The notes: generated by a model not told the origin, from the sequence alone. Positions 1-38,137 are shown, counted from the stretch's first letter. The stretch is 64,000 nt of DNA from an uncultured Planctomycetales bacterium (GCA_964487475.1 CAZAPM010000001.1:122086-186085); one strand, 5' to 3'. Numbers and translations are program-made.

Positions 1-1
1 T

Positions 2-154
2 CGGCCTTCGGCGTGTGCTTCTTCCATGCCTGCCAAGATCACGGATGAAGTTAAGACGCAGAGGCTCATGCGGCTCGCCGCCCTCTTAAAGGCGGCAGGG
101 AGAGCGTTTTCCTTGCGAGACTATACGTTGCCCCATGTCCCAACTCATCGCTGA
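2..154 (+). CDS. 3' end of an ORF entering from the window edge (...KTQRLMRLAALLKAAGRAFSLRDYTLPHVPTHR*); alternatively a 42-aa peptide from ATG 26; overlaps the next gene by 20 nt
   Basis: Frame 2 is open from nt 2 to the TGA at 152-154. An ATG lies at 26. Tight overlap with the radical-SAM gene starting at 135 suggests co-translation. Not in the ORF track because it is short or partial. Confidence 0.3.
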   Translation, partial: RPSACASSMPAKITDEVKTQRLMRLAALLKAAGRAFSLRDYTLPHVPTHR

Positions 155-1178
155 ACTGTACCTGACCGAAGCATGTACCATGCGCTGCCGCTATTGTTAT
201 CTCCCCAAACGTCCGCGCAGGATGACCTGGGAAGTCGCACGTAAGGCGGTGGATCTCGTGGCTTCCAGGAAAGTGCCTTCTACCATCATCTGTTTTTTCG
301 GGGGTGAGCCTCTTCTGGAGTGGGAGCTTCTGGTCCGGGTCGTCGCATATGCGCGGCGACAGGGGATCAGGCGTTTCAACATCTGTACGAACGGACTGGC
401 GATCACACGTCGCAGGGCGGCGCAGATGGCAGCCATGAACCTGGTCCCGATGTTCAGTATCGACGGAGCGTTCCGGCAGCATGACCGGGAACGCCTGGGC
501 GTACGGGGAAGGGCTACGCATGCTCGGGTGGTCAGGCGCATAAAGGAAGCGGTCCCTTTTTTCAAGGGGATGCCTGTCCAGGTCCAGATCACGGTCACTC
601 CCGGTACCGTCGATACGCTGCGGGAGTCGGTGGGGTTCATCCGAGGTGCATTCCCCGGATGGGATATTAATCTGGTTCCTGCGGCTGCGCAAGGGGTGCG
701 TTATAGATGGGATGCATCAGCATGTACCACGCTGCGTGCGCAATGCCGGGGATTAGGCGCGGATATCGCCGCAGAGAGGCGCGCGGGAGTATCCGGTTCG
801 GTTTCATACATGTGTTGCGCGCCGCAGCGGGACCTGGCCCATTTTAAGGCAGGTCGCCGTGCTTCTTGTTTTTGCGCCCCGGCGACCAGGCATCTTTCGG
901 TCACGGTGGAGGGAGAGGTATACCCGTGTTTCTTTTTCGCGGGACTCAAGGACAAGGCGTTTCGGATCGGTGATGTGCATGAGGGGTTGTCTGCCGGGCC
1001 TTTTGTGCGTCGGGTAGGAGAGGCTTTTTCGCGAAGGCCGGGAGTGTTTACTTGTTGGGCCGGAAATGCGGTGGTGAGGGGTATGATGGAACACAGGGCC
1101 GGTATATATGAAACGTTCGACAGGGCCTGGGCGGTCGCCGCGGCTCAGGTCAGGCGCCAGGCAACGGAGGTGCGGTGA
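135..1178 (+). CDS. radical SAM enzyme with SPASM/twitch-like C-terminal domain (anSME / peptide-maturase-like)
   Basis: N-terminal CTMRCRYC (CxxxCxxC). FFGGEPLL SAM-binding motif. FSIDG...HD..R......G hallmark of the SPASM subfamily. Cys-rich C-terminal half (YMCC...SCFC...YPC...FTC) with a GDVHEGL motif resembling the SPASM G-N/D-I/V...E motif. Confidence 0.85.
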   Translation: MSQLIAELYLTEACTMRCRYCYLPKRPRRMTWEVARKAVDLVASRKVPSTIICFFGGEPLLEWELLVRVVAYARRQGIRRFNICTNGLAITRRRAAQMAAMNLVPMFSIDGAFRQHDRERLGVRGRATHARVVRRIKEAVPFFKGMPVQVQITVTPGTVDTLRESVGFIRGAFPGWDINLVPAAAQGVRYRWDASACTTLRAQCRGLGADIAAERRAGVSGSVSYMCCAPQRDLAHFKAGRRASCFCAPATRHLSVTVEGEVYPCFFFAGLKDKAFRIGDVHEGLSAGPFVRRVGEAFSRRPGVFTCWAGNAVVRGMMEHRAGIYETFDRAWAVAAAQVRRQATEVR

Positions 1179-2053
1179 GTTCAGCGGCCGGAGTCCCTCT
1201 CCGAATCCTTGAAGTGTTCGCGCGTTCCTGGGGGGGAGCGGGAGAGTATGAGTTCTCTCTTACTCAGGGGAGCGATCAGCTTGGGGTATCTCATCTGGCT
1301 TTTCCCCCCGTACCTGAGACGACTGTGAATTTCATGGAGTTCCATCGTAAACGTTCGGCGCAGATACGGGAGTGCTGCAGGCGTGTCGCGCCTCGCGTGG
1401 TTTCCGGCAGGGTATTGCGCAAGGTATGTACCTTTGCTTTGGCGTACCGGCTCCCTCTGCAGTTCGGTTGCGAGGTAGCGCCGGGAGGGGGAATGCAGGC
1501 AAAGCTGTATCTGAGCGCAGGGCCTCGGCGTATGCACCTTTTAAAGGCCGCACAGGGTATTTTGGACTCTTTCGGGTGTCCTCCGGAGGCAGCGAAAGAA
1601 TGCGTTCCTCCAGAGTGGCATATCGATGCGTTCGGGTTCGACCTTTCCGGCGTTCCGGGGGTGCGCATATATAGCGCGGTCAGGGCTACTTCCCGTGGTC
1701 TGTCCTCTCTCGGCAAGTATCTGCGTATGTGCAGGGGAGGATTTCTCTCTCCGCTTGCCCGGAGGTTCCTCTCGCATGCGTCGCAGGTGAAGCCGAAGGA
1801 TGTGCTCCTCTTGTTCCGCATTGATGCGAAAGGGATCAGTTCAGCGAAGGCTTGTTTCAGGTTCAGGAAGCCGCTTTCTTTCTCCCTGCTTAGGCGTTGC
1901 GGCCGTGTGCCTGGCGGCCGCGGATTCTCCTGGCTGAGCAGCCGCGCAGAGGAGCTGGAGAGGCAGGGGTTCGGCATTTCTTACTTCTGCGCGGAGCGCT
2001 CTTCTTGCGGGATCTATTTCCGTCATCTCACGGCGGTGAGGAGAAGTTCATGA
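1175..2053 (+). CDS. hypothetical protein (292 aa), translationally coupled between radical-SAM genes
   Basis: GTG start at 1175 overlaps the TGA of the upstream gene (GTGA). Its stop at 2051-2053 overlaps the ATG of the next gene (ATGA). Non-repetitive, protein-like composition. Competing ORFs in the interval are Arg/Pro-rich antisense-type junk. No recognisable domain. Confidence 0.5.
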   Translation: MSSAAGVPLRILEVFARSWGGAGEYEFSLTQGSDQLGVSHLAFPPVPETTVNFMEFHRKRSAQIRECCRRVAPRVVSGRVLRKVCTFALAYRLPLQFGCEVAPGGGMQAKLYLSAGPRRMHLLKAAQGILDSFGCPPEAAKECVPPEWHIDAFGFDLSGVPGVRIYSAVRATSRGLSSLGKYLRMCRGGFLSPLARRFLSHASQVKPKDVLLLFRIDAKGISSAKACFRFRKPLSFSLLRRCGRVPGGRGFSWLSSRAEELERQGFGISYFCAERSSCGIYFRHLTAVRRSS

Positions 2054-2955
2054 AAAGAAAATCCCTGCGCAAGCTCGATTACAAGATCGGGTTCGCGTGT
2101 AACAACTATTGTATCCATTGTGTACAGGGAGGCAAGCGGGAGTCGGTACGTGCGAGGACTTTGTTTCAGATCATGCGGGATATACGCGAAAGTGCGGCGA
2201 CCTGTACGGAAGTGGTGTTTACGGGAGGGGAGCCGACCATCCATCCCCATTTCCTTGAGGCGGTGCGGGAAGCTGCGAGGGCCGGCTATTCCGTGATCCA
2301 GGTGCAGTCCAATGGAAGGATGTTCGTCTATCCCGAGTTCTGCCGCGCAGCCATGGACGCAGGAGTCAATGATTTCTGTGTTGCCGTCCTTGGTGACAGC
2401 GCACGTCTCCATGAAGCGCATACTCTTGCGAAAGGGAGTTTTTCCCAGGTAGTGCAGGGTATACGGAACCTGCGTTCTTTGGGATGCCGCGTTTCGGTCA
2501 ACTCCGTGATCACCAAGCTTAACTATCGGCGTCTGCCCCGTCTGGCGATGTTCCTTTCCGGCTTAGGGGTAGCGCAGGTGCAGTTCGCGTTTCCTCATCC
2601 CGGGGGGAGGGCGTGGATAAATTTTCCGCGCGTGGTGCCGCGGATGAGCACGGTCGTGCCTTTCGTGTGCGAGGGGCTGCGGAAGGGAGCGCAGCGTGGG
2701 GTGCGCATGATGACCGAGGCTATCCCTCCGTGCATGCTTCCTGGATTCGAGGGGTTTATCGCGGAACGGATCATGCCCGATGCGACCGTGTTCGATGGCG
2801 ACCTGGTGATCGAGCGTTATGAGGAGTATCGCAGGGATAAGGGGAAGCGAAAAGGGCCCCGGTGCGGCCAGTGCCGGTATTTTCCCTCTTGCGAGGGGAC
2901 ATGGAAAGAGTATCCCGAGAAGTTCGGCTGGAAGGAGTTCAGGCCTGTCGTATGA
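2050..2955 (+). CDS. radical SAM enzyme, tandem paralog 1 (twitch-type auxiliary Cys cluster)
   Basis: CNNYCIHC CxxxCxxC motif. FTGGEPT. VQSNGRMF. GDSARLHEAHT..KGSF. C-terminal CGQCRYFPSCEG (Cx2Cx5C). ATG 2050 is preceded by the Shine-Dalgarno GGTGAGGAG. The track's longer start at 1897 is rejected. Confidence 0.85.
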   Translation: MKRKSLRKLDYKIGFACNNYCIHCVQGGKRESVRARTLFQIMRDIRESAATCTEVVFTGGEPTIHPHFLEAVREAARAGYSVIQVQSNGRMFVYPEFCRAAMDAGVNDFCVAVLGDSARLHEAHTLAKGSFSQVVQGIRNLRSLGCRVSVNSVITKLNYRRLPRLAMFLSGLGVAQVQFAFPHPGGRAWINFPRVVPRMSTVVPFVCEGLRKGAQRGVRMMTEAIPPCMLPGFEGFIAERIMPDATVFDGDLVIERYEEYRRDKGKRKGPRCGQCRYFPSCEGTWKEYPEKFGWKEFRPVV

Positions 2956-3875
2956 TCAGGAAAACGGTGATCATCATGGGGTACCGGTGTAATTGTCATT
3001 GCGTGTTCTGCTGCAATGCGCATAAGCGTTCCCTGCCCGACCGGTCCACCGATGATATTCTGGTCGAGATGGCGCGCGCGCGCAGACGCGGGTGTACGTA
3101 CCTCGAACTTATCGGAGGGGAGGGGACCATACGGAAGGATATTTTGCAGCTGGTTTCACAGGCCCGCCGCATCGGCTTCGAAGAGGTGGTCATGGCGTCC
3201 AACGGGAGGATGTTCGCGTATCCGCATTTCGCCCGAGATCTGGTGGATGCCGGGGTGACACATCTGGTATTCTCCATTCACGGGCATACCGCGGCATTAC
3301 ACGATTCTCTTACCAGGTCCCCGGGTAGTTTTGGGCAGCTGATCGAGGGGATCGGTCATATCCGTCGTTTCAGGGACCGCTGCCCCATCGGGTCTAACAC
3401 GACTATCGTGAAGGGGAATTACCGCGCGCTCGAGGAGATCGGCAAGTTCATCTATTCGCTGGGTATCCGCAACGCCGAGTTCATCTTTGTCGATCCGACA
3501 CAGGGTGCAGCGTTCTCTTCCTTTGCCCGTATCGTGCCGAGACTTTCTGTTATGGCCCCGTACGCACGTAAATGCCTGGAATTCGGGAAGGCCAGGAGGA
3601 TCCCCCACTGGCATCTGCGATACGTGCCGTTATGCCTCTTTCCCGGTCACGAAGACCGAATCAGCGAGCTTGCGGAACGGAAGACGTTCATCACGGAGCA
3701 TGTAGCCGGGGATTTCGTCAATTTTGACGTGCAGTCATCCCGTGCTTCCGTTGGGCGTATCAAGCCTCCGAAGTGCCGTAAGTGTGCGAAATTCGCCAGA
3801 TGCGAGGGGCTTTGGAAGGAATATTACCGACATTACGGGGATAAAGAACTGCTGCCGGATATCACCCATGCCTAA
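2952..3875 (+). CDS. radical SAM enzyme, tandem paralog 2
   Basis: CNCHCVFC motif. LIGGEGT. MASNGRMF. SIHGHTAALHDSLTRSPGSF. CRKCAKFARCEG. ATG 2952 overlaps the stop of paralog 1 (ATGA). Collinear motif-by-motif similarity to paralogs 1 and 3. Confidence 0.85.
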   Translation: MIRKTVIIMGYRCNCHCVFCCNAHKRSLPDRSTDDILVEMARARRRGCTYLELIGGEGTIRKDILQLVSQARRIGFEEVVMASNGRMFAYPHFARDLVDAGVTHLVFSIHGHTAALHDSLTRSPGSFGQLIEGIGHIRRFRDRCPIGSNTTIVKGNYRALEEIGKFIYSLGIRNAEFIFVDPTQGAAFSSFARIVPRLSVMAPYARKCLEFGKARRIPHWHLRYVPLCLFPGHEDRISELAERKTFITEHVAGDFVNFDVQSSRASVGRIKPPKCRKCAKFARCEGLWKEYYRHYGDKELLPDITHA

Positions 3876-4800
3876 TATTTCAGTATATCACAAATGCGAT
3901 AACCGTTGTGTGATGTGCTCCAATCCCAGGGATTTCATACAAAGCCCGGCGAAGGATTTCTCCCTGGCGCGACTTTCACGGCGTTTAAAGAATTTTTCCC
4001 TGGGGAGAAATGTCTTTCTGGAGAATTTCAGGGACGCGTTCATTCTTTCCGGCGGTGAGCCTACCATGTCTCCGGATCTTTTTCCCGTTATCCGGAGGGT
4101 CGCCACGTTGTTCCCGCAGGCTCAGATCACCTGCTTGACCAATGGCAGGGCGTTTTCCCGTGAAGCGTACGCCAGGGAGTTCATGCGGAGGTTCCCGCTG
4201 GTGAATCTGGTGATCCCCGTGCACGGGCATACGGCTTCGCTGCACGACCGTATCACCAGGGTCAAGGGGAGCTTTACGCAGACCCTGCGGGGTCTGCAGG
4301 TGATCAGTGCCCTTATGCGTCCTACCCAGCTGCTTGAGCTCCGGGTGGTCCTGCACGGCCTCAATTACCGCTGGATGAAGGAAATTGCCCGGTTTCTGCG
4401 CGCGCAGGTCCCCAGTGCGGGACGGGTGGTTTTCATATTCGTCGAAATAGAGGGGGAGGCGGCTAAGAACTGGCGGAGGATCGGCGTGACGTATACGCAG
4501 GTCCGTCCTTTCTTGCGGGAAGCGGCTTCAGAATTGCTGCGGCTTCCTGATCCCCGGCTGTACCATTTTCCGCTCTGTCTGGTGCCGCGGGCGCTTTTCC
4601 CCCTTGTTTTTCGCACCCTGCCCGAAGCAGAGATCATGTTCCCCGTTCAGTGCCGCCTCTGTGCGCTTAAAAGCTGTTGCCTGGGGGTACACCGTGGGTA
4701 CGCCGGCGGTGTAGGGGTGGATGAGTTCCGCCCTTTCAGGCGGAAGATACGCTTCGTACGTACGGGCAATTGGTATCATCCGATCGGCAGGGTTTTGTGA
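3868..4800 (+). CDS. radical SAM enzyme, tandem paralog 3
   Basis: CDNRCVMC motif. LSGGEPT. CLTNGRAF. PVHGHTASLHDRITRVKGSF. C-terminal CRLCALKSCC. ATG 3868 overlaps the end of paralog 2 by 8 nt. Confidence 0.8.
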   Translation: MPNISVYHKCDNRCVMCSNPRDFIQSPAKDFSLARLSRRLKNFSLGRNVFLENFRDAFILSGGEPTMSPDLFPVIRRVATLFPQAQITCLTNGRAFSREAYAREFMRRFPLVNLVIPVHGHTASLHDRITRVKGSFTQTLRGLQVISALMRPTQLLELRVVLHGLNYRWMKEIARFLRAQVPSAGRVVFIFVEIEGEAAKNWRRIGVTYTQVRPFLREAASELLRLPDPRLYHFPLCLVPRALFPLVFRTLPEAEIMFPVQCRLCALKSCCLGVHRGYAGGVGVDEFRPFRRKIRFVRTGNWYHPIGRVL

Positions 4801-5738
4801 TGGTTCCTTTCACGCTTGCCGACGCCCTCCTTTTTCCGGGCGTACTGGTCCTGGGAGCGGTAACCAGCATTGAGGATTTCAGGATTGGCAAGGTCCGTAA
4901 TGTCTGGATCCTGCGCGGCATGCTGTACGCGGTACTTGTGTACTGCGCGGTCTTTCTGCTGCAGTTCGTTATGGGAGGGGACCAGGGAGTGCGCGCACTG
5001 GTGCAGCCATTTTTTTACCGTTTCGACAGGTTCCTGGTTACGGTAGGAACGAGTATCTGTGTGGCATATGCGCTTTGGAGGTATCGAGTGTGGGGCGCAG
5101 GGGATGCGAAACTTTTCATCTGTTATTCGATGCTTTTCCCCCTTTCAAGTTACCGGCTTGTGTATTTCGATCATTATTTCGCATCGTACCTTATCCTGCT
5201 GGCGATCTTTATTCCCGCCACCGTCTTTCTCCTGGGGCGTTCGCTGTTTTTTTTCCTCCGATCCGGGGAATACTGGCGCACGCGTGCGGAAACGAGGAAG
5301 GTGATGCCTCGCCGTCCCCTCAAGGAGAAATGCGTGGGAGGAGCGCGGATATTCCTGGGTTTTTTCCTGATGTTCATCCTTGCCCAGTTGCTTATCGCGG
5401 GTATTCCCTTTTTCTCCCGGGGAGGGGCGGGGAGTCTCGGCGCGATCGTGCTTTCGTGGCTCGTGTTTAGGCCGCTATCCCTTTTTTTTAAGCGTTACCA
5501 TCTTGCGGTGATTTCCGGTTTCCTTATCCTTGCCGTGGGAGCAGGGTTTTTCCCGGAGCTGCGTGCCTCGCTTATTTCAAAAGAGCTGTGGTTCTCTTTT
5601 CTGCGTGCGCTGGCGGCGCTTGTGGGTTTCCCGGTATTTCGCATGGTCATCGATGAATATGTGGATTATTCCGGCCGCAAGGAATCCCGTTTTGCGGTGT
5701 GGATGTTCCTGGGAACAATTATTTCACGGTTCCTGTGA
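4800..5738 (+). CDS. polytopic membrane protein, prepilin-peptidase (A24, TadV/CpaA)-like aspartyl protease
   Basis: Highly hydrophobic with multiple predicted TM helices. First catalytic Asp context SIEDFRIGKVRN resembles CpaA/TadV D....R.IPN. Second motif WGAGDAKLF matches the A24 GGGDxKL motif. ATG 4800 overlaps the TGA of the preceding radical-SAM gene (TGATG). The track's TTG start at 4770 is also possible. Confidence 0.6.
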   Translation: MVPFTLADALLFPGVLVLGAVTSIEDFRIGKVRNVWILRGMLYAVLVYCAVFLLQFVMGGDQGVRALVQPFFYRFDRFLVTVGTSICVAYALWRYRVWGAGDAKLFICYSMLFPLSSYRLVYFDHYFASYLILLAIFIPATVFLLGRSLFFFLRSGEYWRTRAETRKVMPRRPLKEKCVGGARIFLGFFLMFILAQLLIAGIPFFSRGGAGSLGAIVLSWLVFRPLSLFFKRYHLAVISGFLILAVGAGFFPELRASLISKELWFSFLRALAALVGFPVFRMVIDEYVDYSGRKESRFAVWMFLGTIISRFL

Positions 5739-5787: not shown

Positions 5788-5816
5788 TTGACAGCCCAAG
5801 GGAAGAGGGCTATAAT
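5788..5816 (+). promoter_or_regulatory. sigma70-type promoter upstream of recA (TTGACA-17 nt-TATAAT)
   Basis: Consensus -35 TTGACA at 5788-5793, 17-nt spacer, consensus -10 TATAAT at 5811-5816. RBS GGAGG at 5863-5867 precedes ATG 5874. Confidence 0.6.
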
Positions 5817-5873: not shown

Positions 5874-6974
5874 ATGAGTGCTGAAAAGAAACCAGCAGGA
5901 AAGTCCGCTGCTGCCGCCCCCGTTGCGGCGGTAGAGGAGCAGAAGCAGTCCTCCGAGCGTAACGAGCGAAGCAAGGCGCTTGAGCTCGCGCTTTCCCAGA
6001 TAGAGAAACAGTTCGGCAAGGGGTCGATCATGAAGCTTGGCGGCGACGTCAAGGTTCACGTCGATGCCATCCCGACCGGCGCCCTGACCCTGGATGTGGC
6101 CTTGGGCGTGGGAGGCCTTCCCCGCGGCCGTATCATCGAGGTCTTCGGGCCGGAAGCCAGCGGTAAGACCACCCTGACCCTGACCCTGATCCGCGAGATC
6201 CAGAAAAAGGGGGGTGTCGCGGCATTTATCGACGCTGAGCACGCGTTCGATTCCACTTATGCGAAGGTCATCGGGGTCAATCTCGACGACCTGCTCATCT
6301 CCCAGCCGGATACGGGAGAGCAGGCGCTGGAGATCGCCGAGACTCTGGTGCGCTCCAATGCGGTGGACGTGATCGTGATCGATTCCGTCGCGGCGTTGAC
6401 ACCCCGCGCCGAGATCGAGGGCGAGATGGGGGATGCGCACGTCGGGCTTCAGGCGAGGCTGATGTCGCAGGCCCTGCGCAAGCTCACCGCGGCGATCAGC
6501 AAATCCCGGACCTGCATGGTGTTCATCAATCAGCTGCGCGAGAAGATCGGCGTCATGTTCGGCTCTCCCGAGACCACTCCCGGAGGCCGGGCGCTGAAGT
6601 TCTATTCGTCGGTAAGGCTCGATCTGCGCCGTATCGCGACCCTGAAATCCGGGGAGCAGGTGATCGGCAACCGCGTCAAATGCAAAGTGGTCAAGAACAA
6701 GGTCGCACCTCCCTTCCGCGAGGCGGAGTTCGAGACGCTGCATAACGAAGGGATCTCCAAGGCCGGTTCGATCGTCGACGCCGGGGTGGGGGTGGGGGTC
6801 CTGGACAAGCCCGGGGTGTGGATCTCCTTCAACGGAGAAAAGATCGGACAGGGCAGGGACGCGGCGGTCAAGACGGTCAAAGAGAACATCAAACTTGCGG
6901 ACGCGATCGAGAAAGAGATCCGCAAGCGGATATTCGCAGGTGCGGAACCTGCCAAACCCGCTGCCAAAGCGTAA
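5874..6974 (+). CDS. recA: recombinase RecA
   Basis: [12 protein letters not shown] Walker [45 protein letters not shown]. Unmistakable RecA. Confidence 0.97.
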
Positions 6975-7039: not shown

Positions 7040-7507
7040 GTGGCACGCACAGAGCTCCCCGAAATTTCGCAGGCGAAGCGGTACGCATTCCTGCTGCTTA
7101 AATACCGGCAGCGGAGCACGGAGGAGTTGCGTCACCGTTTGGGGAAAAAGGGTTTTTCCGCCGAGGTCGTCGAGCCGCTGCTGGCATGGCTGACGGAGAA
7201 ACGTTTCCTGGATGACAGGCAGTTCGCCTTCGACTGGATGCGGCAGAGGCTGGGCAGTTCCTTTGGACGCCGGCGGGTGGCGCTGGAACTGCGGCGTAAA
7301 GGGATCAGCGCCGGGTTGATCGAACAGGCGGGCCAGGAAGTATCCCGGGAGCACGACGAAGGATCGATGGTGCGGGAGATGGTCGCCCGCAAGATGAAAG
7401 TGTACCGGAATCTGGAACCTCAGGTGGCCAAAAGGAGATTGTACGGGTTCCTGCTCCGCCGGGGATTCTCTCCCGAAGTGATCATGGAAGCCATGGAAAA
7501 AATATGA
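7040..7507 (+). CDS. recX: RecX recombination regulator (start uncertain; GTG 7040 proposed)
   Basis: Conserved recA-recX-alaS order. RYAFLLLKYRQRSTEELRHRLGKKGFS... helical-repeat RecX-like sequence. The track ORF from 6818 would overlap recA by 150 nt and is rejected. No ATG lies after the recA stop, so GTG 7040 gives a 155-aa product. Confidence 0.6.
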   Translation: MARTELPEISQAKRYAFLLLKYRQRSTEELRHRLGKKGFSAEVVEPLLAWLTEKRFLDDRQFAFDWMRQRLGSSFGRRRVALELRRKGISAGLIEQAGQEVSREHDEGSMVREMVARKMKVYRNLEPQVAKRRLYGFLLRRGFSPEVIMEAMEKI

Positions 7508-10137
7508 ACGCGAATACCGTCCGTCAGAAATACCTGGATTTTTTCAAGCAGAAGGGGCATAAAGCCGTTGCCAGCGATTCCCTGGTGCCGAAGAACGACC
7601 CGACCCTGCTCTTTACCACAGCGGGGATGAACCAGTTCAAGATGCAGTTCTTAGGCATGGTCACGGATTACCGCCGGGCGACCTCTTCGCAGCGGTGCCT
7701 GCGCACGGACGACCTGGACAAGGTGGGTAAGACCGACTGCCATCACACCTTCTTCGAGATGCTGGGGAATTTCTCCTTCGGCGATTATTTCAAGAGGGAG
7801 GCGATCCTCTGGGCCTGGGAGTTCCTGACCCGGGAGCTCAAGCTCGACCGTGAGCGGTTGTGGGTCTCGGTGTATAAGGACGACACGGAAGCGTTCGATA
7901 TCTGGAAGGATGAGGTCAAGTTCCCGGAATCCAGGATCGTGCGGCTCGGGGATAAGGATAATTTCTGGCCTTCGGAAGCGAAAGAGAAGGGCCCGAACGG
8001 CCCCTGCGGCCCCTGCTCGGAGATCTTCGTGGACTTAGGCCCCCAGACCGGATGCAAAAAACCCGGATGTTCCCCGGCGTGCAGCTGCGGCCGTTTCATC
8101 GAGATCTGGAACCTGGTGTTCACCCAGTTCAACCGTAAGGAAGGCGGGGTGCTCGAGCCTTTGCCCCAGAAGAATATCGATACCGGGATGGGGTTGGAGC
8201 GTATCACCGCGGTGATGCAGGGCAAGACCAATAATTTCGAGACCGATCTTTTCCAGCCGGTGATCAAAGAGATACTGGCCAAGGCGAAAGTGTCGCCGAA
8301 ACAGGAAGTGGTGTATGCGCTCGCCGATCATCTGCGGGCGGTGGCGTTCACCATCCTGGACGGGGTGATGCCCTCCAACGAGTTCCGGGGGTATGTCATC
8401 CGCAAGTTGATCCGGAAATCCGTGCTGCACCTGTATTCCCTGGGGATCAAGGAGCCTTTTCTGTATGCGTTAGTGCCGGTGCTGGCAGAGGTGATGTCCG
8501 TGCCGTACCCGGAGCTTAAAGAACGCCGGGAGAATGTCTCCCAGGTGATCCAGGCGGAGGAGAGGAATTTCATCGCGATCCTGGAGGAGAGCGGGGCGCT
8601 GCTGGAGGAGAAGTTCGCGGCAGTGAAAGCGCGTCCGGATGCGAAGCAGGCCGGGCAGATCGCGTTCCTGCTCAACGATACCTACGGTATCCCTTTTGAC
8701 CTGACCCAGGAGTGGGCGCTGCAGCAGGGGATCGAGATAGACAAGTCCGCGTTCGATGAGGGGCGGCTGGAGCAGAGCGTGCGTTCCCGGCAGCACAGCA
8801 AGATGCAGGGGGATGTCTTCGACGTCAAGGAAGCGCAGCTGCGCAATGTCGCAGCATCTATTTTTGTCGGATACGAGTCCATGAAGGCGCCGGCGGAGGG
8901 GGAAGCCTTACCGCAGGTCATCGCGTTGGTCAATCAGGAAGGTGATCTGGTCAACGAGCTGGGGAATGCTTCGCAGGGGCAGGTGATACTCGACCGCACG
9001 CCTTTTTACGCGGAATCAGGAGGTCAGGCCGGGGATGCGGGCACGATCACCTTTGAGGGGGGGTCTTTCGTCGTTGAGGATACGCATAAGGTGGAGAAGG
9101 TGTTCTTGCATAAGGGGCAGGTCAAAGGCGGGGCGCTCAAAGTAGGGGTCAAGGTCACGGCGGAAGTGAATGCCGGCCGGCGCCTGGACATCATGCGTAA
9201 CCACACCGCCACGCACCTTTTGCAGGCGGCGCTGCGCAAAGTGCTCGGGGAGCATGTGCAGCAGCAGGGGTCGATGGTCGCCGCCGACCGTTTCCGTTTC
9301 GATTTCGCGCATTTCAAGGCTTTGACCGACGAGGAGCTTGCGCACGTCGAGGCGTTCGTCAACGAGCAGGTGATCGTCAACCATGCCGTCACCAAGAAGG
9401 TCATGGATCAGGATGAGGCGAAAGCCGCGGGCGCCCTGGCGTTCTTCGGGGATAAATACGAGGATAAGGTGCGCGTGGTGGCGGTCCCGGGGGTCTCGCA
9501 GGAGCTCTGCGGGGGCACGCATCTGGATTCGACCGGACAGATCGGTCTTTTCAAGATCATCTCCGAAAGCTCGGTGGCCAGCGGGGTGCGCCGTATCGAA
9601 GGCGTGACCGGCAAGGCGGCGTACGAGCTGATCCGGCAGCAGCAGGGGATCCTCAATGAAGTAGCGGAGACGCTGCGCGTGCCGCGGGAGAAGCTGGCAT
9701 CCGAGGTGCAGAAAAAACTGGCGCGGATCAAGGAGCTGGAAAAGCAGCTTTCCTCCGCGAAGAGCGGATCGGTGATCTCGGTGATCGACGAGGCGGTCAG
9801 GCAGGCAGAGGAGATCGCGGGGATCAAGGTGGTGGCGAGAATGCTCGAAGCGGCGGATATGGCACAGATCAGAAGCGCCATGGATGCGGCCAAGCAGAAG
9901 CTGGGAAGCGGCGCGGTGGCGCTCGCCGGAGTATCCGAGGGGAAGGTTGCTTTGGGTATCGGCTTTACTCCCGATCTGGTGGCCAAAGGTTTCGACGCCG
10001 GGGCGGCAGTGCGTGAAGTGGCCCCTTTGATCGGCGGAAGCGGCGGAGGCCGCAAGGATTTTGCGCAGGCGGGCGGCAGCGATGAGTCGGGTATCAATAA
10101 GGCGTTCGAGAAGTTCAAGAACTGGTTGAGGAAATAG
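7504..10137 (+). CDS. alaS: alanyl-tRNA synthetase
   Basis: 877 aa. Class II aaRS N-terminus FTTAGMNQFK. Editing-domain HTATHLL..AL. C-terminal DHHA1-like GGGRKDFAQAGG. ATGA overlap with recX. Confidence 0.97.
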   Translation: MNANTVRQKYLDFFKQKGHKAVASDSLVPKNDPTLLFTTAGMNQFKMQFLGMVTDYRRATSSQRCLRTDDLDKVGKTDCHHTFFEMLGNFSFGDYFKREAILWAWEFLTRELKLDRERLWVSVYKDDTEAFDIWKDEVKFPESRIVRLGDKDNFWPSEAKEKGPNGPCGPCSEIFVDLGPQTGCKKPGCSPACSCGRFIEIWNLVFTQFNRKEGGVLEPLPQKNIDTGMGLERITAVMQGKTNNFETDLFQPVIKEILAKAKVSPKQEVVYALADHLRAVAFTILDGVMPSNEFRGYVIRKLIRKSVLHLYSLGIKEPFLYALVPVLAEVMSVPYPELKERRENVSQVIQAEERNFIAILEESGALLEEKFAAVKARPDAKQAGQIAFLLNDTYGIPFDLTQEWALQQGIEIDKSAFDEGRLEQSVRSRQHSKMQGDVFDVKEAQLRNVAASIFVGYESMKAPAEGEALPQVIALVNQEGDLVNELGNASQGQVILDRTPFYAESGGQAGDAGTITFEGGSFVVEDTHKVEKVFLHKGQVKGGALKVGVKVTAEVNAGRRLDIMRNHTATHLLQAALRKVLGEHVQQQGSMVAADRFRFDFAHFKALTDEELAHVEAFVNEQVIVNHAVTKKVMDQDEAKAAGALAFFGDKYEDKVRVVAVPGVSQELCGGTHLDSTGQIGLFKIISESSVASGVRRIEGVTGKAAYELIRQQQGILNEVAETLRVPREKLASEVQKKLARIKELEKQLSSAKSGSVISVIDEAVRQAEEIAGIKVVARMLEAADMAQIRSAMDAAKQKLGSGAVALAGVSEGKVALGIGFTPDLVAKGFDAGAAVREVAPLIGGSGGGRKDFAQAGGSDESGINKAFEKFKNWLRK

Positions 10138-14992: not shown

Positions 14993-16483
14993 ATGTTCAA
15001 TCCATCATTTCAGGAATTTAAAAAGCTGGCGAAACAGGGGAACGTTGTTCCTGTGTATAAGGAGATCAACGCCGACCTGGATACGCCGGTCTCTGCCTTC
15101 CTTAAGATACGGGAGAAGGGCTACGCCTTCCTCCTGGAGTCCGTGGAAGGACAGGAGAAGATCGGCCGTTACTCTTTCCTGGGGACTTCGCCCTCGTTGG
15201 TCTTTACCAGCAAGGGCCGGCGTATCAGCATACGGTATCCCGCGACCGGCCGGGTGAAGGAGTTCGATACCGCGACCGACCCCCTGGACGAGGTGCGCAC
15301 CCTCATGCAGGGATACAAGGACGTGCCGGTTCCCGGGCTGCCCAGGTTCTACGGCGGGATGGTCGGGTATTTAGGGTATGATATGGTGCGTTTTTTCGAG
15401 GATATCCCGGATAAGAACCCGGATGAACTCCATCTGCCGGATTCGGTGCTGATGCTCACCGATACCATCCTGATCTTCGACCACGTCAAGCATACCATCA
15501 AGATCGTCAGCAACTGCCTGCTGGGCGGGAACGGGAAAAAGGGCAGGTCAGAGGCTTCCCTTTCAGCCGTATACCGCCAGGCCGTGCGCCGGATCGAGAC
15601 TTATGAGGCGCTCCTGGGCAAGGCCGTACCGGCTGCCAGCCGGGTGCACCATACCGGCCGCGGGGCCCGGATCACTTCGAACTTTAAAAAAGAAGAGTTT
15701 CATGGTATAGTTGATAAGTCTAAAAAGTACATCAAAGCAGGGGATATCATCCAGGTGGTGCTTTCGCAGCGTTTCGCTGCCCGCACGGATAAGGCGCCGT
15801 TCGATATGTACCGTACGCTGCGCAGCCTCAACCCCTCACCGTATATGTTCTTTCTCCAGATGGACGGGTTCCATCTGGTCGGTTCATCCCCCGAGATCCT
15901 GGTGCGATGCGAGGACAGGGTAGGGGTGGTGCGTCCTATCGCGGGTACCCGGCCGCGGGGAAGGGACGAGCAGGAGGATCTGGAGCTGGAGCGCGAGCTT
16001 CTGGCGGACCAGAAGGAAAGGGCCGAGCATCTGATGCTGGTGGACCTCGGCCGCAACGACCTGGGCCGGGTCTCCAAGCCGGGCAAGGTCAAAGTGACCG
16101 AGTTCATGACCGTGGAGCGGTATTCCCACGTGATGCATCTGGTCAGCGAGGTGCAGGGTATCCTCGAGAACAAGTACGACATCTACGATTGCCTGCGGGC
16201 GAGTTTCCCGGCCGGGACGGTTTCCGGCAGTCCCAAGATCCGGGCGATGGAGATCATAGATGAGCTGGAGAAGACCCGCCGCGGGCCGTACGCCGGAAGC
16301 GTCGGGTATTTCAGCTTCTCGCACAACATGGATATGTGCATTACCATCAGGACGATCATGCACAAAGGAAATACTGCCTACGTCCAGGCAGGAGCGGGGA
16401 TAGTGGCGGATTCGCTGCCCGCGCGTGAATATCGGGAGACCGAGCAAAAAGCCAAGGCCTTGATAGAGGCGATCAGCAAGTAA
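14993..16483 (+). CDS. trpE: anthranilate synthase component I-like chorismate-binding enzyme (TrpE/PabB family)
   Basis: N-terminal FKKLAKQGNVVPVYKEINADLDTPVSAF typical of TrpE. C-terminal chorismate-binding motifs LMLVDLGRND, PAGTVSGSPK, GPYAGSVGYF. Start taken at ATG 14993 because the track start at 14945 overlaps the conserved motif. Confidence 0.85.
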   Translation: MFNPSFQEFKKLAKQGNVVPVYKEINADLDTPVSAFLKIREKGYAFLLESVEGQEKIGRYSFLGTSPSLVFTSKGRRISIRYPATGRVKEFDTATDPLDEVRTLMQGYKDVPVPGLPRFYGGMVGYLGYDMVRFFEDIPDKNPDELHLPDSVLMLTDTILIFDHVKHTIKIVSNCLLGGNGKKGRSEASLSAVYRQAVRRIETYEALLGKAVPAASRVHHTGRGARITSNFKKEEFHGIVDKSKKYIKAGDIIQVVLSQRFAARTDKAPFDMYRTLRSLNPSPYMFFLQMDGFHLVGSSPEILVRCEDRVGVVRPIAGTRPRGRDEQEDLELERELLADQKERAEHLMLVDLGRNDLGRVSKPGKVKVTEFMTVERYSHVMHLVSEVQGILENKYDIYDCLRASFPAGTVSGSPKIRAMEIIDELEKTRRGPYAGSVGYFSFSHNMDMCITIRTIMHKGNTAYVQAGAGIVADSLPAREYRETEQKAKALIEAISK

Positions 16484-16494
16484 GGAGGAGTTTC

Positions 16495-16731
16495 ATGGCA
16501 GTACGTATTCGTATGAGAAGGATCGGCAAGAACCCCAAGAAGCAGCCGCATTTCCGCATCACCGTCTTCGAGGAGACCAGGAACCGCGACGGAAGGCTCA
16601 TCGAGGAGCTGGGATATTACACCCCCGTGACGGGCGTGGTCAAGCTGGATAAGGAACGGTACGCGCACTGGATCAAGATGGGCGCGCAGCCGACGGATAC
16701 CATCAAGTCGATCGTGAAGAAGCAGAAATAA
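16495..16731 (+). CDS. rpsP: 30S ribosomal protein S16
   Basis: MAVRIRMRRIGKNPKKQPHFRI... Confidence 0.95.
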   Translation: MAVRIRMRRIGKNPKKQPHFRITVFEETRNRDGRLIEELGYYTPVTGVVKLDKERYAHWIKMGAQPTDTIKSIVKKQK

Positions 16732-16794
16732 TTGAACTGACACCCGGCCTTATCGGAGCGGCCGGTGTTGCCCTTTCTGGGCAAGGAGGCTTTA

Positions 16795-17079
16795 ATGCCG
16801 CAGGGAGCAGCTTTGAGCCAGATGCTTTTGATGCTGGTGATCTTCGGGATCTTCTATTTTCTGGTGATCATGCCCCAGAAGAAGAAGGAGAAGGAGCATC
16901 AGGAGACGTTGAACAAACTGGCGAAGAACGACGAAGTGATCACCGCTGCGGGGATCCACGGCACGGTGGTCAATGTCAAGGATAAGACGGTGATCGTGCG
17001 GGTAGACGAGAACGTCAAGATCGAGATGGAAAAAAGCAGTATCGCAGTGGTGAAAAGACAACCCGGTATCTCGAAATAA
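16795..17079 (+). CDS. yajC: preprotein translocase subunit YajC
   Basis: Single TM helix. DEVITAAGIHGTVVNVKDKTVIV YajC motif. RBS AAGGAGG before ATG 16795. Confidence 0.9.
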   Translation: MPQGAALSQMLLMLVIFGIFYFLVIMPQKKKEKEHQETLNKLAKNDEVITAAGIHGTVVNVKDKTVIVRVDENVKIEMEKSSIAVVKRQPGISK

Positions 17080-17088
17080 GGACCGTAC

Positions 17089-19290
17089 ATGGAAAAGAAA
17101 CTGATCTATAAGCTGTTGCTGGTGCTGGGCGTGGTAGGGTTGTGCGTCTACTTCGCCTTCCCTCTTAACAAACGCATCAACCTGGGGCTCGACCTTCAGG
17201 GAGGGATGCATCTGTTGTTGAAGGTGGATACTTCCAAGCTCCCGGAGAAGGATAAAGAGGATGCGTGCGACCGTGCGCTGGAGGTCATCCGCAACCGTAT
17301 CGATCAGTTCGGCGTGCGCGAGCCGTCCATCGTCAAGCACGGCACGGACGAGATCGTGGTGCAGTTGCCCGGGGTCACCGACCGCGAGCGGGCCATCGAT
17401 CTTATAGGTAAGACCGCGCTGCTGGAGTTCAAGATGGTCTCCGATGACGGGGAGAAGATCAAGCAGGCTCTTTCCGGCACCGTGCCGGAAGGATATGAGC
17501 TCAAGGAAGACCAGGAGGAGCGCACGCGCTTGCTCTTGGAGAAGGACGCGGTTTTGACCGGGGATGCCATCGCCAACGCCATGGTCAAGTTCGACGAGTC
17601 CTCCATGAACGAGCCGATGGTGACGCTGGAGTTCAATCCCGAAGGCGCCAAGAAGTTCGCGGAGATCACCGCGGCGAACGTGGGCCGGCGCCTGGCGATC
17701 GTCCTGGACGGGAAGGTGCAGACCGCCCCGAACATCAAAGAGGCGATCCCCAGCGGCCAGGCCGTGATCACCGGACGTTATGATGTTACCCGGGCGCAGG
17801 ATATCGCCCTGGTGCTGCGCGTAGGCGCGTTGCCTGCTCCCATGTACGTGGAAGAGGAGAGGACCATCGGCCCGTTGCTGGGGCAGGATTCCATCAAGAA
17901 CGGGATCAAGTCGAGCTTGATCGGCTGTGCGCTGGTATTGCTGTTCATGGCGGGGTATTATCTCATTGCCGGTTTGGTCGCCAACGTCGCGCTTTCCCTG
18001 AACATGCTCATGGTCTTAGGAGGTTTGGGGATGCTGCCGATCCTTTTCCCAGGGATCTCCGCAACGCTTACCCTGCCGGGTATCGCAGGTATGGCGTTAT
18101 CCTTAGGTATGGCTATCGACGCGAACGTGCTCATCAACGAGCGGATCCGCGAGGAACTTAAGTCAGGGAAGACCCTGCGTCAGGCCATCGGCCTGGGGTA
18201 TGACCGGGCGTTCACCGCGATCTTTGATTCCAATATTACCACACTGATTGCGGCATTCCTTCTGTTCCAGTTCGGCACCGGCCCGATCCGCGGCTTTGCC
18301 GTGACCCTGACCATCGGTCTGATCTCATCGCTTTTTACCGCGGTGGTGGTGACCAGGACCATCATGGAGACTTTGCTGCACTTCGGATGGCTCAAATCCC
18401 TGCCCATGCTTTCCCTGGTTAAGCAGACCAAGATCGATTTTATCGGGAAGCGGCGTATCTTCTATGCGCTTTCCGTCCTGGTGATCGGCGCAGGCCTTTG
18501 GTCGTTCATCTCCCGCGGAGATAAGGTCTATGGCATCGATTTCGCCGGAGGACAGGTGCAGGAGTACAAGTTCCAGCAGGCCCCTTCCGTGGATACCGTC
18601 AGGCAGCTGCTGGCGGAGATCGGGCTCAAGGATGCTTCTATCCAGCAGTTCAGGGATAATCCGCAGGTGGTGATGATCCGCACCGTTGAGGATAAGAACA
18701 AGGAGATCACCGCCAAGCTTAAAGAGGCGATGCCGGGACAGACCATCGAGACGCTGCGTATCGAACGCGTGGGCCCGGTGGCGGGAAAGTACCTCAAGGG
18801 CAAAGCGTCCGCGGCGCTGTTATGGTCTCTGATCGGCATCCTGATCTACGTGGCAATTCGCTTCAAGCATTTCAACTTCGCGGCAGCCGGTGTTATCGCG
18901 CTCTTGCATGACGTGCTGGTGGCGATGGGAGCGCTGGCTTTGACCGGCAGGCAGATCGACCTGTTGAGCGTGACGGCGTTCCTGACCATTGCCGGTTATT
19001 CCATCAACGATACCATCGTCATTTACGACAGAGTGCGCGAAAATATGCGGCTGCAGCGTAAGATGACCTTGGCCGAGCTGATAAACTTAAGCGTCAATCA
19101 GACCCTGGGGAGGACTTTGCTTACTTCCGGGGTAACGCTGCTGGTGGTCTTGTCGATCTTCCTGTACGGGGGGGAGATCCTGAGCAATTTCGCGTTTACG
19201 CTTCTGGTGGGGTTTGTCTCGGGCGTGTATTCGACCGTGTACATCGCTTCGCCCCTGGTGCTGGCCTGGCCCAGGAAACCGAAGAAGTAA
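17089..19290 (+). CDS. secDF: fused protein-export membrane protein SecDF
   Basis: 733 aa. SecD periplasmic domain and 6 TM, followed by a SecF-like second 6-TM module. yajC-secDF order. Confidence 0.93.
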   Translation: MEKKLIYKLLLVLGVVGLCVYFAFPLNKRINLGLDLQGGMHLLLKVDTSKLPEKDKEDACDRALEVIRNRIDQFGVREPSIVKHGTDEIVVQLPGVTDRERAIDLIGKTALLEFKMVSDDGEKIKQALSGTVPEGYELKEDQEERTRLLLEKDAVLTGDAIANAMVKFDESSMNEPMVTLEFNPEGAKKFAEITAANVGRRLAIVLDGKVQTAPNIKEAIPSGQAVITGRYDVTRAQDIALVLRVGALPAPMYVEEERTIGPLLGQDSIKNGIKSSLIGCALVLLFMAGYYLIAGLVANVALSLNMLMVLGGLGMLPILFPGISATLTLPGIAGMALSLGMAIDANVLINERIREELKSGKTLRQAIGLGYDRAFTAIFDSNITTLIAAFLLFQFGTGPIRGFAVTLTIGLISSLFTAVVVTRTIMETLLHFGWLKSLPMLSLVKQTKIDFIGKRRIFYALSVLVIGAGLWSFISRGDKVYGIDFAGGQVQEYKFQQAPSVDTVRQLLAEIGLKDASIQQFRDNPQVVMIRTVEDKNKEITAKLKEAMPGQTIETLRIERVGPVAGKYLKGKASAALLWSLIGILIYVAIRFKHFNFAAAGVIALLHDVLVAMGALALTGRQIDLLSVTAFLTIAGYSINDTIVIYDRVRENMRLQRKMTLAELINLSVNQTLGRTLLTSGVTLLVVLSIFLYGGEILSNFAFTLLVGFVSGVYSTVYIASPLVLAWPRKPKK

Positions 19291-19297
19291 ATAAGTC

Positions 19298-19407
19298 AGG
19301 GACGGTTCTGCTGCAAAAGGGGTTTCTCGCTTAAGGTCGGTCCGCTCGAGCAATCAGAGAATGGACCTCAATGCGCTCGAACCCCCTTTTGCAGCAGAAC
19401 CGTCCCT
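19298..19407 (+). repeat. inverted-repeat element, copy A: perfect 25-bp terminal inverted repeats (AGGGACGGTTCTGCTGCAAAAGGGG / CCCCTTTTGCAGCAGAACCGTCCCT) enclosing the ~52-nt conserved motif (copy 2, 19327-19380); followed by a T-tract
   Basis: Arms at 19298-19322 and 19383-19407 are exact reverse complements. The loop carries the second copy of the TCGCTTAAGG...ATGCGCTC motif. TTTTTT follows at 19412-19417. Lies between secDF and mfd. Confidence 0.8.
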
Positions 19408-19424
19408 AATGTTTTTTACCTGTT

Positions 19425-24222: not shown

Positions 24223-24295
24223 GCTGGAGTAGCTCAGTTGGTAGAGCACGTCCTTGGTAAGGACGGGGTCACGGGTTCAATTCCCGTCTCCAGCT
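24223..24295 (+). tRNA. tRNA-Thr (anticodon GGT)
   Basis: Cloverleaf: acceptor GCTGGAG/CTCCAGC; D-arm GCTCAGTTGGTAGAGC; anticodon arm CGTCC-TTGGTAA-GGACG; T-arm ACGGG-TTCAATT-CCCGT. Confidence 0.9.
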
Positions 24296-24575: not shown

Positions 24576-24646
24576 AGGAGCGTCGGTTAATGGCAAACCA
24601 ACGGTCTCCAAAACCGTGACTGCAGGTTCGAGCCCTGCCGCTCCTG
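24576..24646 (+). tRNA. tRNA-Trp (anticodon CCA)
   Basis: Acceptor AGGAGCG/CGCTCCT. Anticodon loop CTCCAAA. T-arm GCAGG-TTCGAGC-CCTGC. Canonical position upstream of secE. Confidence 0.85.
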
Positions 24647-27594: not shown

Positions 27595-35066
<7,472 letters not shown>

Positions 35067-35070
35067 GTAC

Positions 35071-35460
35071 ATGCCTACGATTTCACAGTTAATCAGACTC
35101 GGACGTGTCGCCAAAGCGAAGAAATCCAAATCGCCGGCCTTGAAAGAGTGCCCGCAGCGCCGCGGTGTGTGCCTGCAGGTGCGTACCATGACCCCGAAGA
35201 AGCCCAACTCCGCGCTGCGTAAGATCGCCAGGGTCCGCCTGACGACCGGCATCGAAGTGACGGCGTACATCCCGGGCGAAGGGCATAATCTCCAGGAGCA
35301 TTCCATCGTCCTGGTCAGAGGCGGCCGCGTCAAGGACCTTCCGGGTGTGCGTTACCATATCGTGCGCGGCACTCTGGACTCAGCGGGTGTCAATGCCCGC
35401 CGGAAATCACGTTCAAAGTACGGCGCAAAGCGGCCGAAGGCAAACGCCCCGGCGAAATAA
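35071..35460 (+). CDS. rpsL: 30S ribosomal protein S12
   Basis: PTISQLIR...[10 protein letters not shown]. Confidence 0.97.
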
Positions 35461-35488
35461 CACCAGATACGCAAAAAGGACTGGACTC

Positions 35489-35959
35489 ATGAGAAGAAGA
35501 AGTGCACAGGAACGAGAGATATTACCGGACCCTAAATATAATTCAAAGATAATCGGCAAGTTCATCAATATGCTGATGGTCAAGGGCAAGAAGGCGGTCG
35601 CAGAGAAGATCCTTTACGACGCGTTCGATAAGATCAAGACCGTGACCAACGAGCAGGACGTGATGAAGGTCTTCCACAAGGCCATCGACAACGTCCGGCC
35701 CCGCCTTGAGGTCAAGCCGCGCCGCGTGGGCGGTGCGACCTACCAGGTGCCGGTAGAGGTCCGCCAGGAGCGCGGTACTTCCATCGCGTTGCGCTGGATC
35801 AGGGATTATGCCAAGGCCAAGAAGGGCAAGTCCATGATGGACAAGCTGGCCGACGAGATCATCTCCGCGTTCAAGGGGGAAGGCGCCGCGATCAAGAAGC
35901 GCGACGATACCCACAAGATGGCGGAATCCAACAAGGCGTACGCGCACTTCAGGTGGTAA
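35489..35959 (+). CDS. rpsG: 30S ribosomal protein S7
   Basis: PDPKYNSKIIGKFINMLMVKGKKAVAEKI. Confidence 0.95.
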   Translation: MRRRSAQEREILPDPKYNSKIIGKFINMLMVKGKKAVAEKILYDAFDKIKTVTNEQDVMKVFHKAIDNVRPRLEVKPRRVGGATYQVPVEVRQERGTSIALRWIRDYAKAKKGKSMMDKLADEIISAFKGEGAAIKKRDDTHKMAESNKAYAHFRW

Positions 35960-36016
35960 ACGGATAACTGACGGGTTATTAAACCTAAAAGATAGATAAC
36001 TTCATACACACGACTA

Positions 36017-38116: not shown

Positions 38117-38137
38117 CCAACTTTAGGAGGTGAAGTA

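Follow-up and report, generated by a model that had tools for sequence, protein, structure and literature searches.

What product would four radical S-adenosylmethionine (radical-SAM) enzymes, a protein of predicted prenyltransferase fold and a membrane protease homologue make together? The question is raised by the first 5,738 nucleotides of a 64,000-nucleotide stretch of DNA from an uncultured Planctomycetales bacterium (GCA_964487475.1, CAZAPM010000001.1:122086-186085), referred to here as the window. Six consecutive genes on the + strand, g1 to g6 (135-5738), form the cassette in question (Table 1). A preliminary description had read them as a radical-SAM maturation cassette ending in an A24-type protease, and this is borne out by four radical-SAM enzymes and by an aspartate pair in g6 that is invariant across its family. 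Family matches and related loci together suggest that positions 1-5738 probably form the downstream portion of a single operon, which belongs to an enlarged maturation cluster of the His-Xaa-Ser (Hxs) type.

The cassette is a continuous chain. All open reading frames (ORFs) were confirmed by the ORF list and by direct translation, and every stop/start overlap lies where it was first placed. The stop of g0, the reading frame entering from the window edge, occupies 152-154, which gives a 20-nt overlap with g1. The next junctions are GTGA at 1175 (g1/g2), ATGA at 2050 (g2/g3) and ATGA at 2952 (g3/g4), followed by an 8-nt overlap at 3868-3875 (g4/g5) and TGATG at 4798-4802 (g5/g6). The cassette was also said to end about 50 nt before a consensus recA promoter; that promoter starts 50 nt past the end of g6 and matches the consensus perfectly.

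Table 1. Features of the cassette and its borders, numbered from the first nucleotide of the window.
Feature	Position	Strand	Description
g0	2..154	+	50-codon 3' end of a frame that runs in across the window edge
g1	135..1178	+	347-aa radical-SAM enzyme, partial SPASM/twitch motif; paired with g2
g2	1175..2053	+	292-aa protein, predicted ABBA (PT-barrel) prenyltransferase fold
g3	2050..2955	+	301-aa HxsC4-like radical-SAM enzyme; widespread orthologue family
g4	2952..3875	+	307-aa HxsC4-like radical-SAM paralogue
g5	3868..4800	+	310-aa HxsC-like radical-SAM enzyme
g6	4800..5738	+	312-aa polytopic A24/GxGD aspartyl protease homologue, family-specific C-terminal membrane extension
Promoter, sigma-70-type consensus	5788..5816	+	TTGACA-17-TATAAT, 12/12 positions; 3' boundary of the cassette

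Profile searches confirm that four of the six genes encode radical-SAM enzymes. Against the Pfam Radical_SAM model (cut-off 29.5 bits), g1, g3, g4 and g5 score 63.2, 72.0, 61.4 and 52.3 bits, and each carries a CxxxCxxC motif, located at residue 14 in g1. The further assignment of g1 to the SPASM type is marginal, with 19.8 bits against a Pfam cut-off of 21.5 and only half of the motif, Cx12Gx4C (at 247). Its best NCBIfam match is PapB (138 bits, cut-off 340), and it reaches 61.4 bits against HxsB (TIGR03978), short of the cut-off of 370. The three paralogues have Hxs models as their best NCBIfam matches: HxsC4 (NF038332, cut-off 500) for g3 and g4, with 152.7 and 143.0 bits, and HxsC (TIGR03977, cut-off 267.9) for g5, with 157.2 bits. 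They carry a conserved C...CX2CX5C motif and give no match to the SPASM model; in g3 orthologues, C228, C272, C275 and C281 are invariant. Cofactor enzymes were tried as identities for g3-g5 and rejected, since MoaA, PqqE, NirJ and AhbD gave lower scores than the Hxs models. A close relative of g1, from the same 90%-identity cluster, occurs in locus L092 (3-1043), where a 64-nt gap and another gene follow it with no overlapping g2; a variant arrangement may exist in a related strain.

Evidence on what the cassette belongs to also comes from its relatives. An alignment of g3 orthologues, used to scan contigs from one genome per species, recovered 570 or more of them. Identity is 45-52% among the top 80, which belong to Patescibacteria/Candidate Phyla Radiation (CPR), Elusimicrobia, Omnitrophota, Myxococcota, Margulisiibacteriota, Planctomycetia and Aenigmatarchaeota. 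Orthologues of g3 are 44-52% identical; those of g4 (50-57%) adjoin g5 and g6 orthologues in related loci, and those of g5 (30-38%) lie directly upstream of g6 orthologues. The check on neighbourhood conservation that had been proposed for this locus shows that the order g3...g4-g5-g6 recurs in genomes of uncultured CPR/Patescibacteria, Omnitrophota, Elusimicrobia, Myxococcota and DPANN. It is seen in L099, L014, L015, L019, L020, L026, L033, L039, L040, L045, L056 and L090, and several of these loci carry HxsA, HxsB or HxsD on the same strand. The full set of g3, g4, g5 and g6 orthologues is present in 11 of 42 g6-bearing loci.

Clustering of the ORFs in the loci found by the g3 scan revealed a recurrent upstream module, and its parts can be named. 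In related loci, NCBIfam identifies HxsB with 538 and 503 bits (cut-off 370), HxsD with 64 and 62.6 bits (cut-off 50), an HxsD-like protein with 72.7 and 68.2 bits (cut-off 41) and an HxsA4/A3-type repeat peptide, with 59.4 bits for HxsA4 (cut-off 55). Because these components are recognised above their cut-offs, the related clusters are enlarged His-Xaa-Ser systems. L099 illustrates the arrangement: its 5' part holds HxsB, a 242-aa protein, HxsA and four further genes, and its 3' part holds orthologues of g3 (48%), then a 283-aa radical-SAM gene, and orthologues of g4 (55%), g5 (38%) and g6 (30%) in the order of the window. The g4-g5-g6 triad is accompanied by HxsA and HxsB in L099, L040, L015, L019 and L045. 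Complete clusters in L093, L096 and L100 comprise HxsD, HxsB, HxsA, several radical-SAM genes and an A24-like gene, and those of L093 and L096 also contain a g1-like/g2-like pair. The cluster of L100 is compact and bounded by housekeeping genes; it consists of HxsD, HxsD-like, HxsB, a 223-aa protein, HxsA, four radical-SAM genes and the A24-like gene. The L099 orthologues of g3-g5 score equally far below the HxsC and HxsC4 cut-offs, the g5 orthologue reaching 153.3 bits. Since proteins inside verified Hxs clusters score the same, these cut-offs do not cover the g3-g5 paralogues.

The precursors encoded in these relatives share a defined architecture. The HxsA3/A4-type peptides are 85-130 aa long, and 31 of them align without gaps. 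A conserved basic leader, PKIKKNlKxFLTSEEGKIsKKdivK, is followed by [LIAM]-[G/A/S/T], so that its last Lys is the K of the motif K-[LIAM]-[G/A/S/T]. The residue before the hydrophobic segment is small in all 31 (G in 19, A in 6, S in 4 and T in 2). After it come 12-14 hydrophobic residues, often with an AxA-like motif, and then the His-Xaa-Ser repeats; the C-terminal ends are aromatic or GGWC (GSW, GQW, GSY or GGWC). A24 proteases cut class III signal peptides at a small residue preceded by Lys, before a hydrophobic segment. As a candidate A24-type cleavage site, the K-[LIAM]-[G/A/S/T] motif is suggestive only. Three loci also encode proteins of about 500-555 aa that open with an HxsA3/A4 leader and long His-Xaa-Ser runs (L015 3311-4825, L040 7337-8866 and L045 3138-4805). 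After the repeats follows a conserved domain, about 300 aa long and starting CCPF[IV]..WNGK, so that the repeat module is also fused to a large domain.

The preliminary description had assigned both catalytic aspartate motifs of A24 peptidases to g6, and both are present and invariant throughout the g6 family. In alignments A2 and A3 (32 and 36 sequences), D26 lies within TS[YI]EDF[KR]xxKI[RK]N and D102 within WGAGDAKLF, so that the second aspartate sits in the GxGD motif typical of the family, and g6 also shows the FlaK-like membrane fold. The suggested search with the A24 profile succeeds for the family and falls short for g6 itself: Pfam Peptidase_A24 (PF01478) matches 29 of 32 family members at E of at most 0.01 (best 3.3e-8), but g6 scores 17.8 bits against a gathering cut-off of 26.5. 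Its 50 homologues are up to 37% identical, and a profile of the family matched no PDB sequence. Because the aspartate pair is invariant and 29 of 32 members match PF01478, g6 is, judged by its sequence, a real A24-type protease homologue. The family nevertheless forms a clade of its own that has diverged from other A24 proteins: its Pfam scores are weak, and some 140 additional residues at the C-terminus form further membrane helices. Weak similarity to the Pfam model and this extension set g6 apart from FlaK/PibD (A24B), TadV/CpaA and PilD, and CPR members of the clade differ further by an insertion of about 65 residues. This insertion (alignment A2, columns 336-400; L014, L033, L040, L055 and L072, mostly CPR) is apparently soluble and precedes the last membrane helix; it is absent from g6 of the window and from the homologues found by protein search. 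Context separates the groups as well, with radical-SAM clusters around g6 and pilus, archaellum or secretion genes around FlaK/PibD, TadV/CpaA and PilD. To our knowledge, A24 proteases are known solely from pilin-type substrates.

The link between g6 and radical-SAM genes holds in independent samples. Most loci of the genome scan were fetched through g3 and contain a radical-SAM gene by construction, so a second sample was drawn through the g6 family in metagenome contigs. In 39 of its 42 loci with at least 3 kb of upstream sequence, the 6 kb preceding the g6-family gene contain two or more same-strand radical-SAM genes of Hxs type. In the genome set, 30 of 44 g6-like genes start within 100 nt of the preceding radical-SAM gene, many of them overlapping it, and each of the six homologues that were looked up individually closes, on the 3' side, a row of many radical-SAM genes of the same orientation. 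In only 2 of 43 loci is a type IV pilin-like ORF found within 4 kb of a g6-like gene. One of these two is L093, where a type IV pilin gene (MKKRGFTLVEIM...) with pilM, pilN, pilO and secretin genes (16133-20921) directly follows the A24-like gene. Another recurrent arrangement places a conserved protein of about 325-355 aa and a tetratricopeptide repeat (TPR)-like protein of about 160 aa before the A24-like gene (L006 8190-9742, L010 8563-10017, L093 13508-14975 and L111 8549-10000). All four loci have this pair, L006 being from Omnitrophota; at that position the window has g4 and g5, like the CPR-type clusters.

For g2, which the preliminary description had left as unknown, structure prediction indicates a prenyltransferase fold. 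Pfam and NCBIfam assign it to no family, including the curated prenyltransferases, and a word-based search found no homologues; an exhaustive phmmer run found six distant relatives. The model (predicted local distance difference test score 73.5, predicted template modelling score 0.75) has five alpha-alpha-beta-beta units, and these form the ten-stranded antiparallel barrel that defines ABBA proteins. In alignment A4 of the family, E26, K110, Y112, D151, Y166, R215, K225 and Y281 are invariant and R229, Y270 and R283 nearly so; these residues lie mostly in or beside predicted strands, and the basic and Tyr residues among them may correspond to those that line the barrel of ABBA enzymes and bind the prenyl diphosphate. 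A g1-like radical-SAM gene directly precedes the g2-family gene in 6 of 8 loci, counting the window, at a distance of -34 to +3 nt. Resemblance to the ABBA prenyltransferases of ribosomally synthesised and post-translationally modified peptides (RiPPs), such as the cyanobactin enzymes PagF, LynF and PatF and also DciF, and to the dimethylallyl tryptophan synthases (DMATS) is based on the predicted fold. From these g2 differs in having no detectable sequence family membership and in being paired with a g1-like radical-SAM gene. PatF is a non-catalytic ABBA-fold protein, and g2 could be non-catalytic like it.

Taken together, these components suggest how the cluster would work. In relatives, HxsD, a short HxsD-like protein and HxsB head the cluster, which also encodes an HxsA3/A4-type precursor; the same is assumed to lie outside the window. 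The HxsC paralogues g3, g4 and g5, along with g1, would install radical-mediated modifications on the repeat region, a step modelled on the +8 Da change that HxsB, HxsC and HxsD make in SHRSS in the canonical system. The ABBA-fold protein g2, paired with its g1-like enzyme, would add a prenyl group or hold the substrate. Finally, g6 would cleave off the leader on the cytoplasmic side of the membrane, with K-[LIAM]-[G/A/S/T] as the candidate site. More tentatively, and as a possibility that we rate below even chances, this distinct A24/GxGD clade may be the dedicated leader peptidase of radical-SAM-modified His-Xaa-Ser peptides, cutting where the leader meets the hydrophobic segment, at a signal resembling class III. 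CPR, DPANN, Omnitrophota and Elusimicrobia may then make a repeat peptide that carries many modifications, possibly prenyl groups among them, and is exposed at the membrane or the cell surface.

Several observations count against placing the cassette in an Hxs cluster with this outcome. The 64 kb of the window contain no HxsA, HxsB, HxsD or HxsD-like protein: there is no ORF with H.S repeats and no match to the HxsA models (TIGR03979, NF038296, NF038309 and NF038313), and profiles made from verified members of HxsD (the LLNDYxLRE protein, TIGR03976) and HxsD-like (NF038315) found nothing. Because the window lacks a precursor, HxsB and HxsD, we infer Hxs membership from family matches and synteny. 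No window protein reaches a curated Hxs cut-off in NCBIfam, and g0 matches none of the HxsA, HxsD, HxsD-like and HxsB profiles. L111 and L010 carry the g1-g2-g3...g6 module, yet no Hxs core is visible within 10 kb upstream of it. Of 26 metagenome loci that were sampled through g6 and extend 8 kb or more upstream of it, only 5 show HxsA, HxsB or HxsD, a figure obtained with profiles that miss many cluster genes and with 10-kb flanks shorter than the clusters. Since radical-SAM-type ORFs fill the upstream DNA nearly to its end in the mapped loci, absence of the Hxs core there is not established. The structural model of g2 is of moderate confidence only. Lastly, signal peptidase I could cut the precursors in place of g6, because their hydrophobic segment is short (12-14 residues) and AxA-like motifs follow.

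Two of these loci have features of their own. Upstream of its g1-like/g2-like/g3-orthologue module (421-4773), L111 has a radical-SAM ORF of 659 aa with additional domains at its N-terminus, together with two ORFs that resemble glycosyltransferases. In L010, small ORFs of 91 and 65 aa (4330-4887) were considered as precursors and rejected: they look like transposase fragments by eye and have no HxS repeats. They sit in the middle of the radical-SAM cluster, which suggests an insertion remnant.

The missing core leaves room for a separate radical-SAM RiPP system that has borrowed HxsC-like enzymes, with a precursor of another kind than His-Xaa-Ser upstream and the g1-g2 pair and the A24 protease as its specific parts. 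It would account for a window without an Hxs core, for the two loci in which the module stands without one, for a g0 unlike any Hxs protein and for a g1 whose best match is not HxsB but PapB, a ranthipeptide maturase. Where clusters are whole, however, the g1-like/g2-like pair lies inside them together with HxsD, HxsB and HxsA (L093 and L096), and the g4-g5-g6 triad keeps company with HxsA and HxsB in five loci, so that a separate system appears unlikely.

Less probable again is a small-molecule pathway, for a cofactor or for lipid or glycan modification, in which a metabolite would be the substrate of the radical-SAM and ABBA enzymes, with g6 as their partner in the membrane. In its favour, the window has no precursor, JGI labels the enzymes MoaA/PqqE-like, and glycosyltransferases lie upstream in L111. 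A known cofactor family had been named in advance as the assignment of the three paralogues that would overturn a peptide system, but the MoaA, PQQ and heme-d1 models score far below the Hxs models. The same operons in relatives encode conserved ribosomal precursors, and a protease with intact catalytic aspartates points to a protein or peptide substrate. A role for g6 as nothing more than the prepilin or Flp peptidase of the cell, next to an unrelated radical-SAM operon by chance, is very improbable: the A24 fold and motifs, the pilin and pilMNOQ genes after the L093 homologue and the NCBI name 'prepilin peptidase' given to some homologues would fit, but g6 is translationally coupled to g5, its family is linked to multi-radical-SAM clusters in nearly all independently sampled loci and in every look-up, pilin-like ORFs are rarely nearby, and the clade is divergent in Pfam score and C-terminal membrane domain.

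The name His-Xaa-Ser system goes back to Haft and Basu (2011), as cited in PMC9062424 and PMC8939145. Its four-gene form, HxsD-HxsB-HxsC-HxsA, is an anti-phage system that blocks phage DNA entry (Li et al., Nat Commun 2026, PMC13128918). According to the same study, 99.7% of canonical occurrences are in Pseudomonadota, HxsA gains a +8 Da modification in SHRSS, and a non-canonical N-terminal cleavage of HxsA requires HxsB, HxsC and HxsD and is made by an unidentified protease (PMC13128918). The likeness lies in the HxsC-type best matches of g3-g5, in the HxsB, HxsD and His-Xaa-Ser substrates of syntenic relatives and in a canonical substrate that is both modified and cut at its N-terminus. The canonical system, however, has four genes, with neither a protease gene nor an ABBA-fold protein. 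Enlarged clusters have at least three HxsC paralogues, and in relatives the radical-SAM genes can number ten or more. They include an A24 protease of their own, their precursors are short but bear long runs of repeats, and their hosts are CPR, Omnitrophota, Elusimicrobia and DPANN. The window differs additionally in lacking HxsA, HxsB and HxsD and in having housekeeping genes downstream, recA with presumed recX and alaS.

Curated models and other multi-enzyme systems cover the enlarged clusters only in part. The NCBIfam models for variant Hxs proteins (HxsA2/A3/A4, HxsC4 NF038332 and HxsD_rel NF038315) name components of these clusters; HxsA3/A4 and HxsD_rel pass their cut-offs in related loci, and no variant model does so for g1-g6 or their orthologues. 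Neither the A24-like nor the ABBA-like family is represented among the curated NCBIfam models. Clusters such as those of the ranthipeptide enzyme PapB, SCIFF and the proteusins (polytheonamide) also devote several radical-SAM enzymes to one ribosomal precursor, but differ in precursor type and protease type, and g1 stays far below the PapB cut-off. Literature searches found no publication that describes these Hxs variants or the enlarged architecture, and nothing relevant on an A24 protease in a RiPP or radical-SAM context or on radical-SAM RiPP clusters in CPR. A cluster that combines a dedicated A24 protease with numerous HxsC paralogues and a protein of ABBA fold is thus apparently new.

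The view that this is an undescribed system consequently needs revision. Orthologues of g3-g6 sit with HxsB, HxsD, HxsD-like and HxsA3/A4 proteins that pass NCBIfam cut-offs, and the caveat that relatives might hold the gene set in a described operon applies in part, through the His-Xaa-Ser system; no report of the enlarged architecture itself was found. The proposed peptide or protein product with a protease-removed leader remains a reasonable reading, because the cassette accompanies long-leader ribosomal precursors in syntenic relatives, although no precursor is present in the window.

At its 3' side the cassette borders core housekeeping genes rather than a defence island, as the promoter, recA (5874-6974) and ORFs that fit recX and alaS follow directly, all on the same strand, to 10137. 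The 7504-10137 product belongs to a JGI cluster with a member named alanyl-tRNA synthetase, and the recX label is putative. PADLOC defence models (2023 library) gave only generic viperin-type radical-SAM matches and none named for Hxs. On the 5' side, g0 is a 153-nt open frame only, which JGI has called as a gene on the short contig L001. An HxsD-like identity for g0, guessed from 'LRDYTL', was dropped when the HxsD and HxsD-like profiles failed to match, and a search of the protein collection with the 50-aa fragment found no full-length relative. Exact protein matches occur only on short JGI/Logan contigs, the best of which begins 12 nt before the window, and a metagenome scan with g1 as the query found nothing. 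The top 80 loci of the genome scan do not include the genome of the window, which should have come first among them. Farther along the window, Rfam identifies two tRNA genes (24223-24295 and 24576-24646); 3' of them, at 27595-39340, lie ORFs of rpoB/rpoC size (1134 and 1355 aa), one for EF-G, named from a JGI cluster member, and a presumed tuf of 400 aa. At 90% identity, the 400-aa and 1134-aa proteins each cluster with no other sequence, a sign that the lineage may be poorly sampled.

Viewed more broadly, enlarged clusters make two questions about the canonical HXS system testable, the chemistry of its modification and the identity of the protease that cuts HxsA, because they encode a candidate protease and many extra tailoring enzymes; the window alone adds less, since it holds only the distal half of a cluster and no substrate. 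With at least 570 matches the clusters are widespread, and they occur in lineages with very small genomes, where devoting 10-20 kb to them suggests an important function. If the A24 clade does act as a dedicated leader peptidase, it would be, as far as we could find, the first A24 protease outside pilus, archaellum and secretion systems, and it would suggest the kind of enzyme behind the unexplained cleavage of HxsA. An A24 clade tied to radical-SAM peptide maturation would widen the biology of the A24 family.

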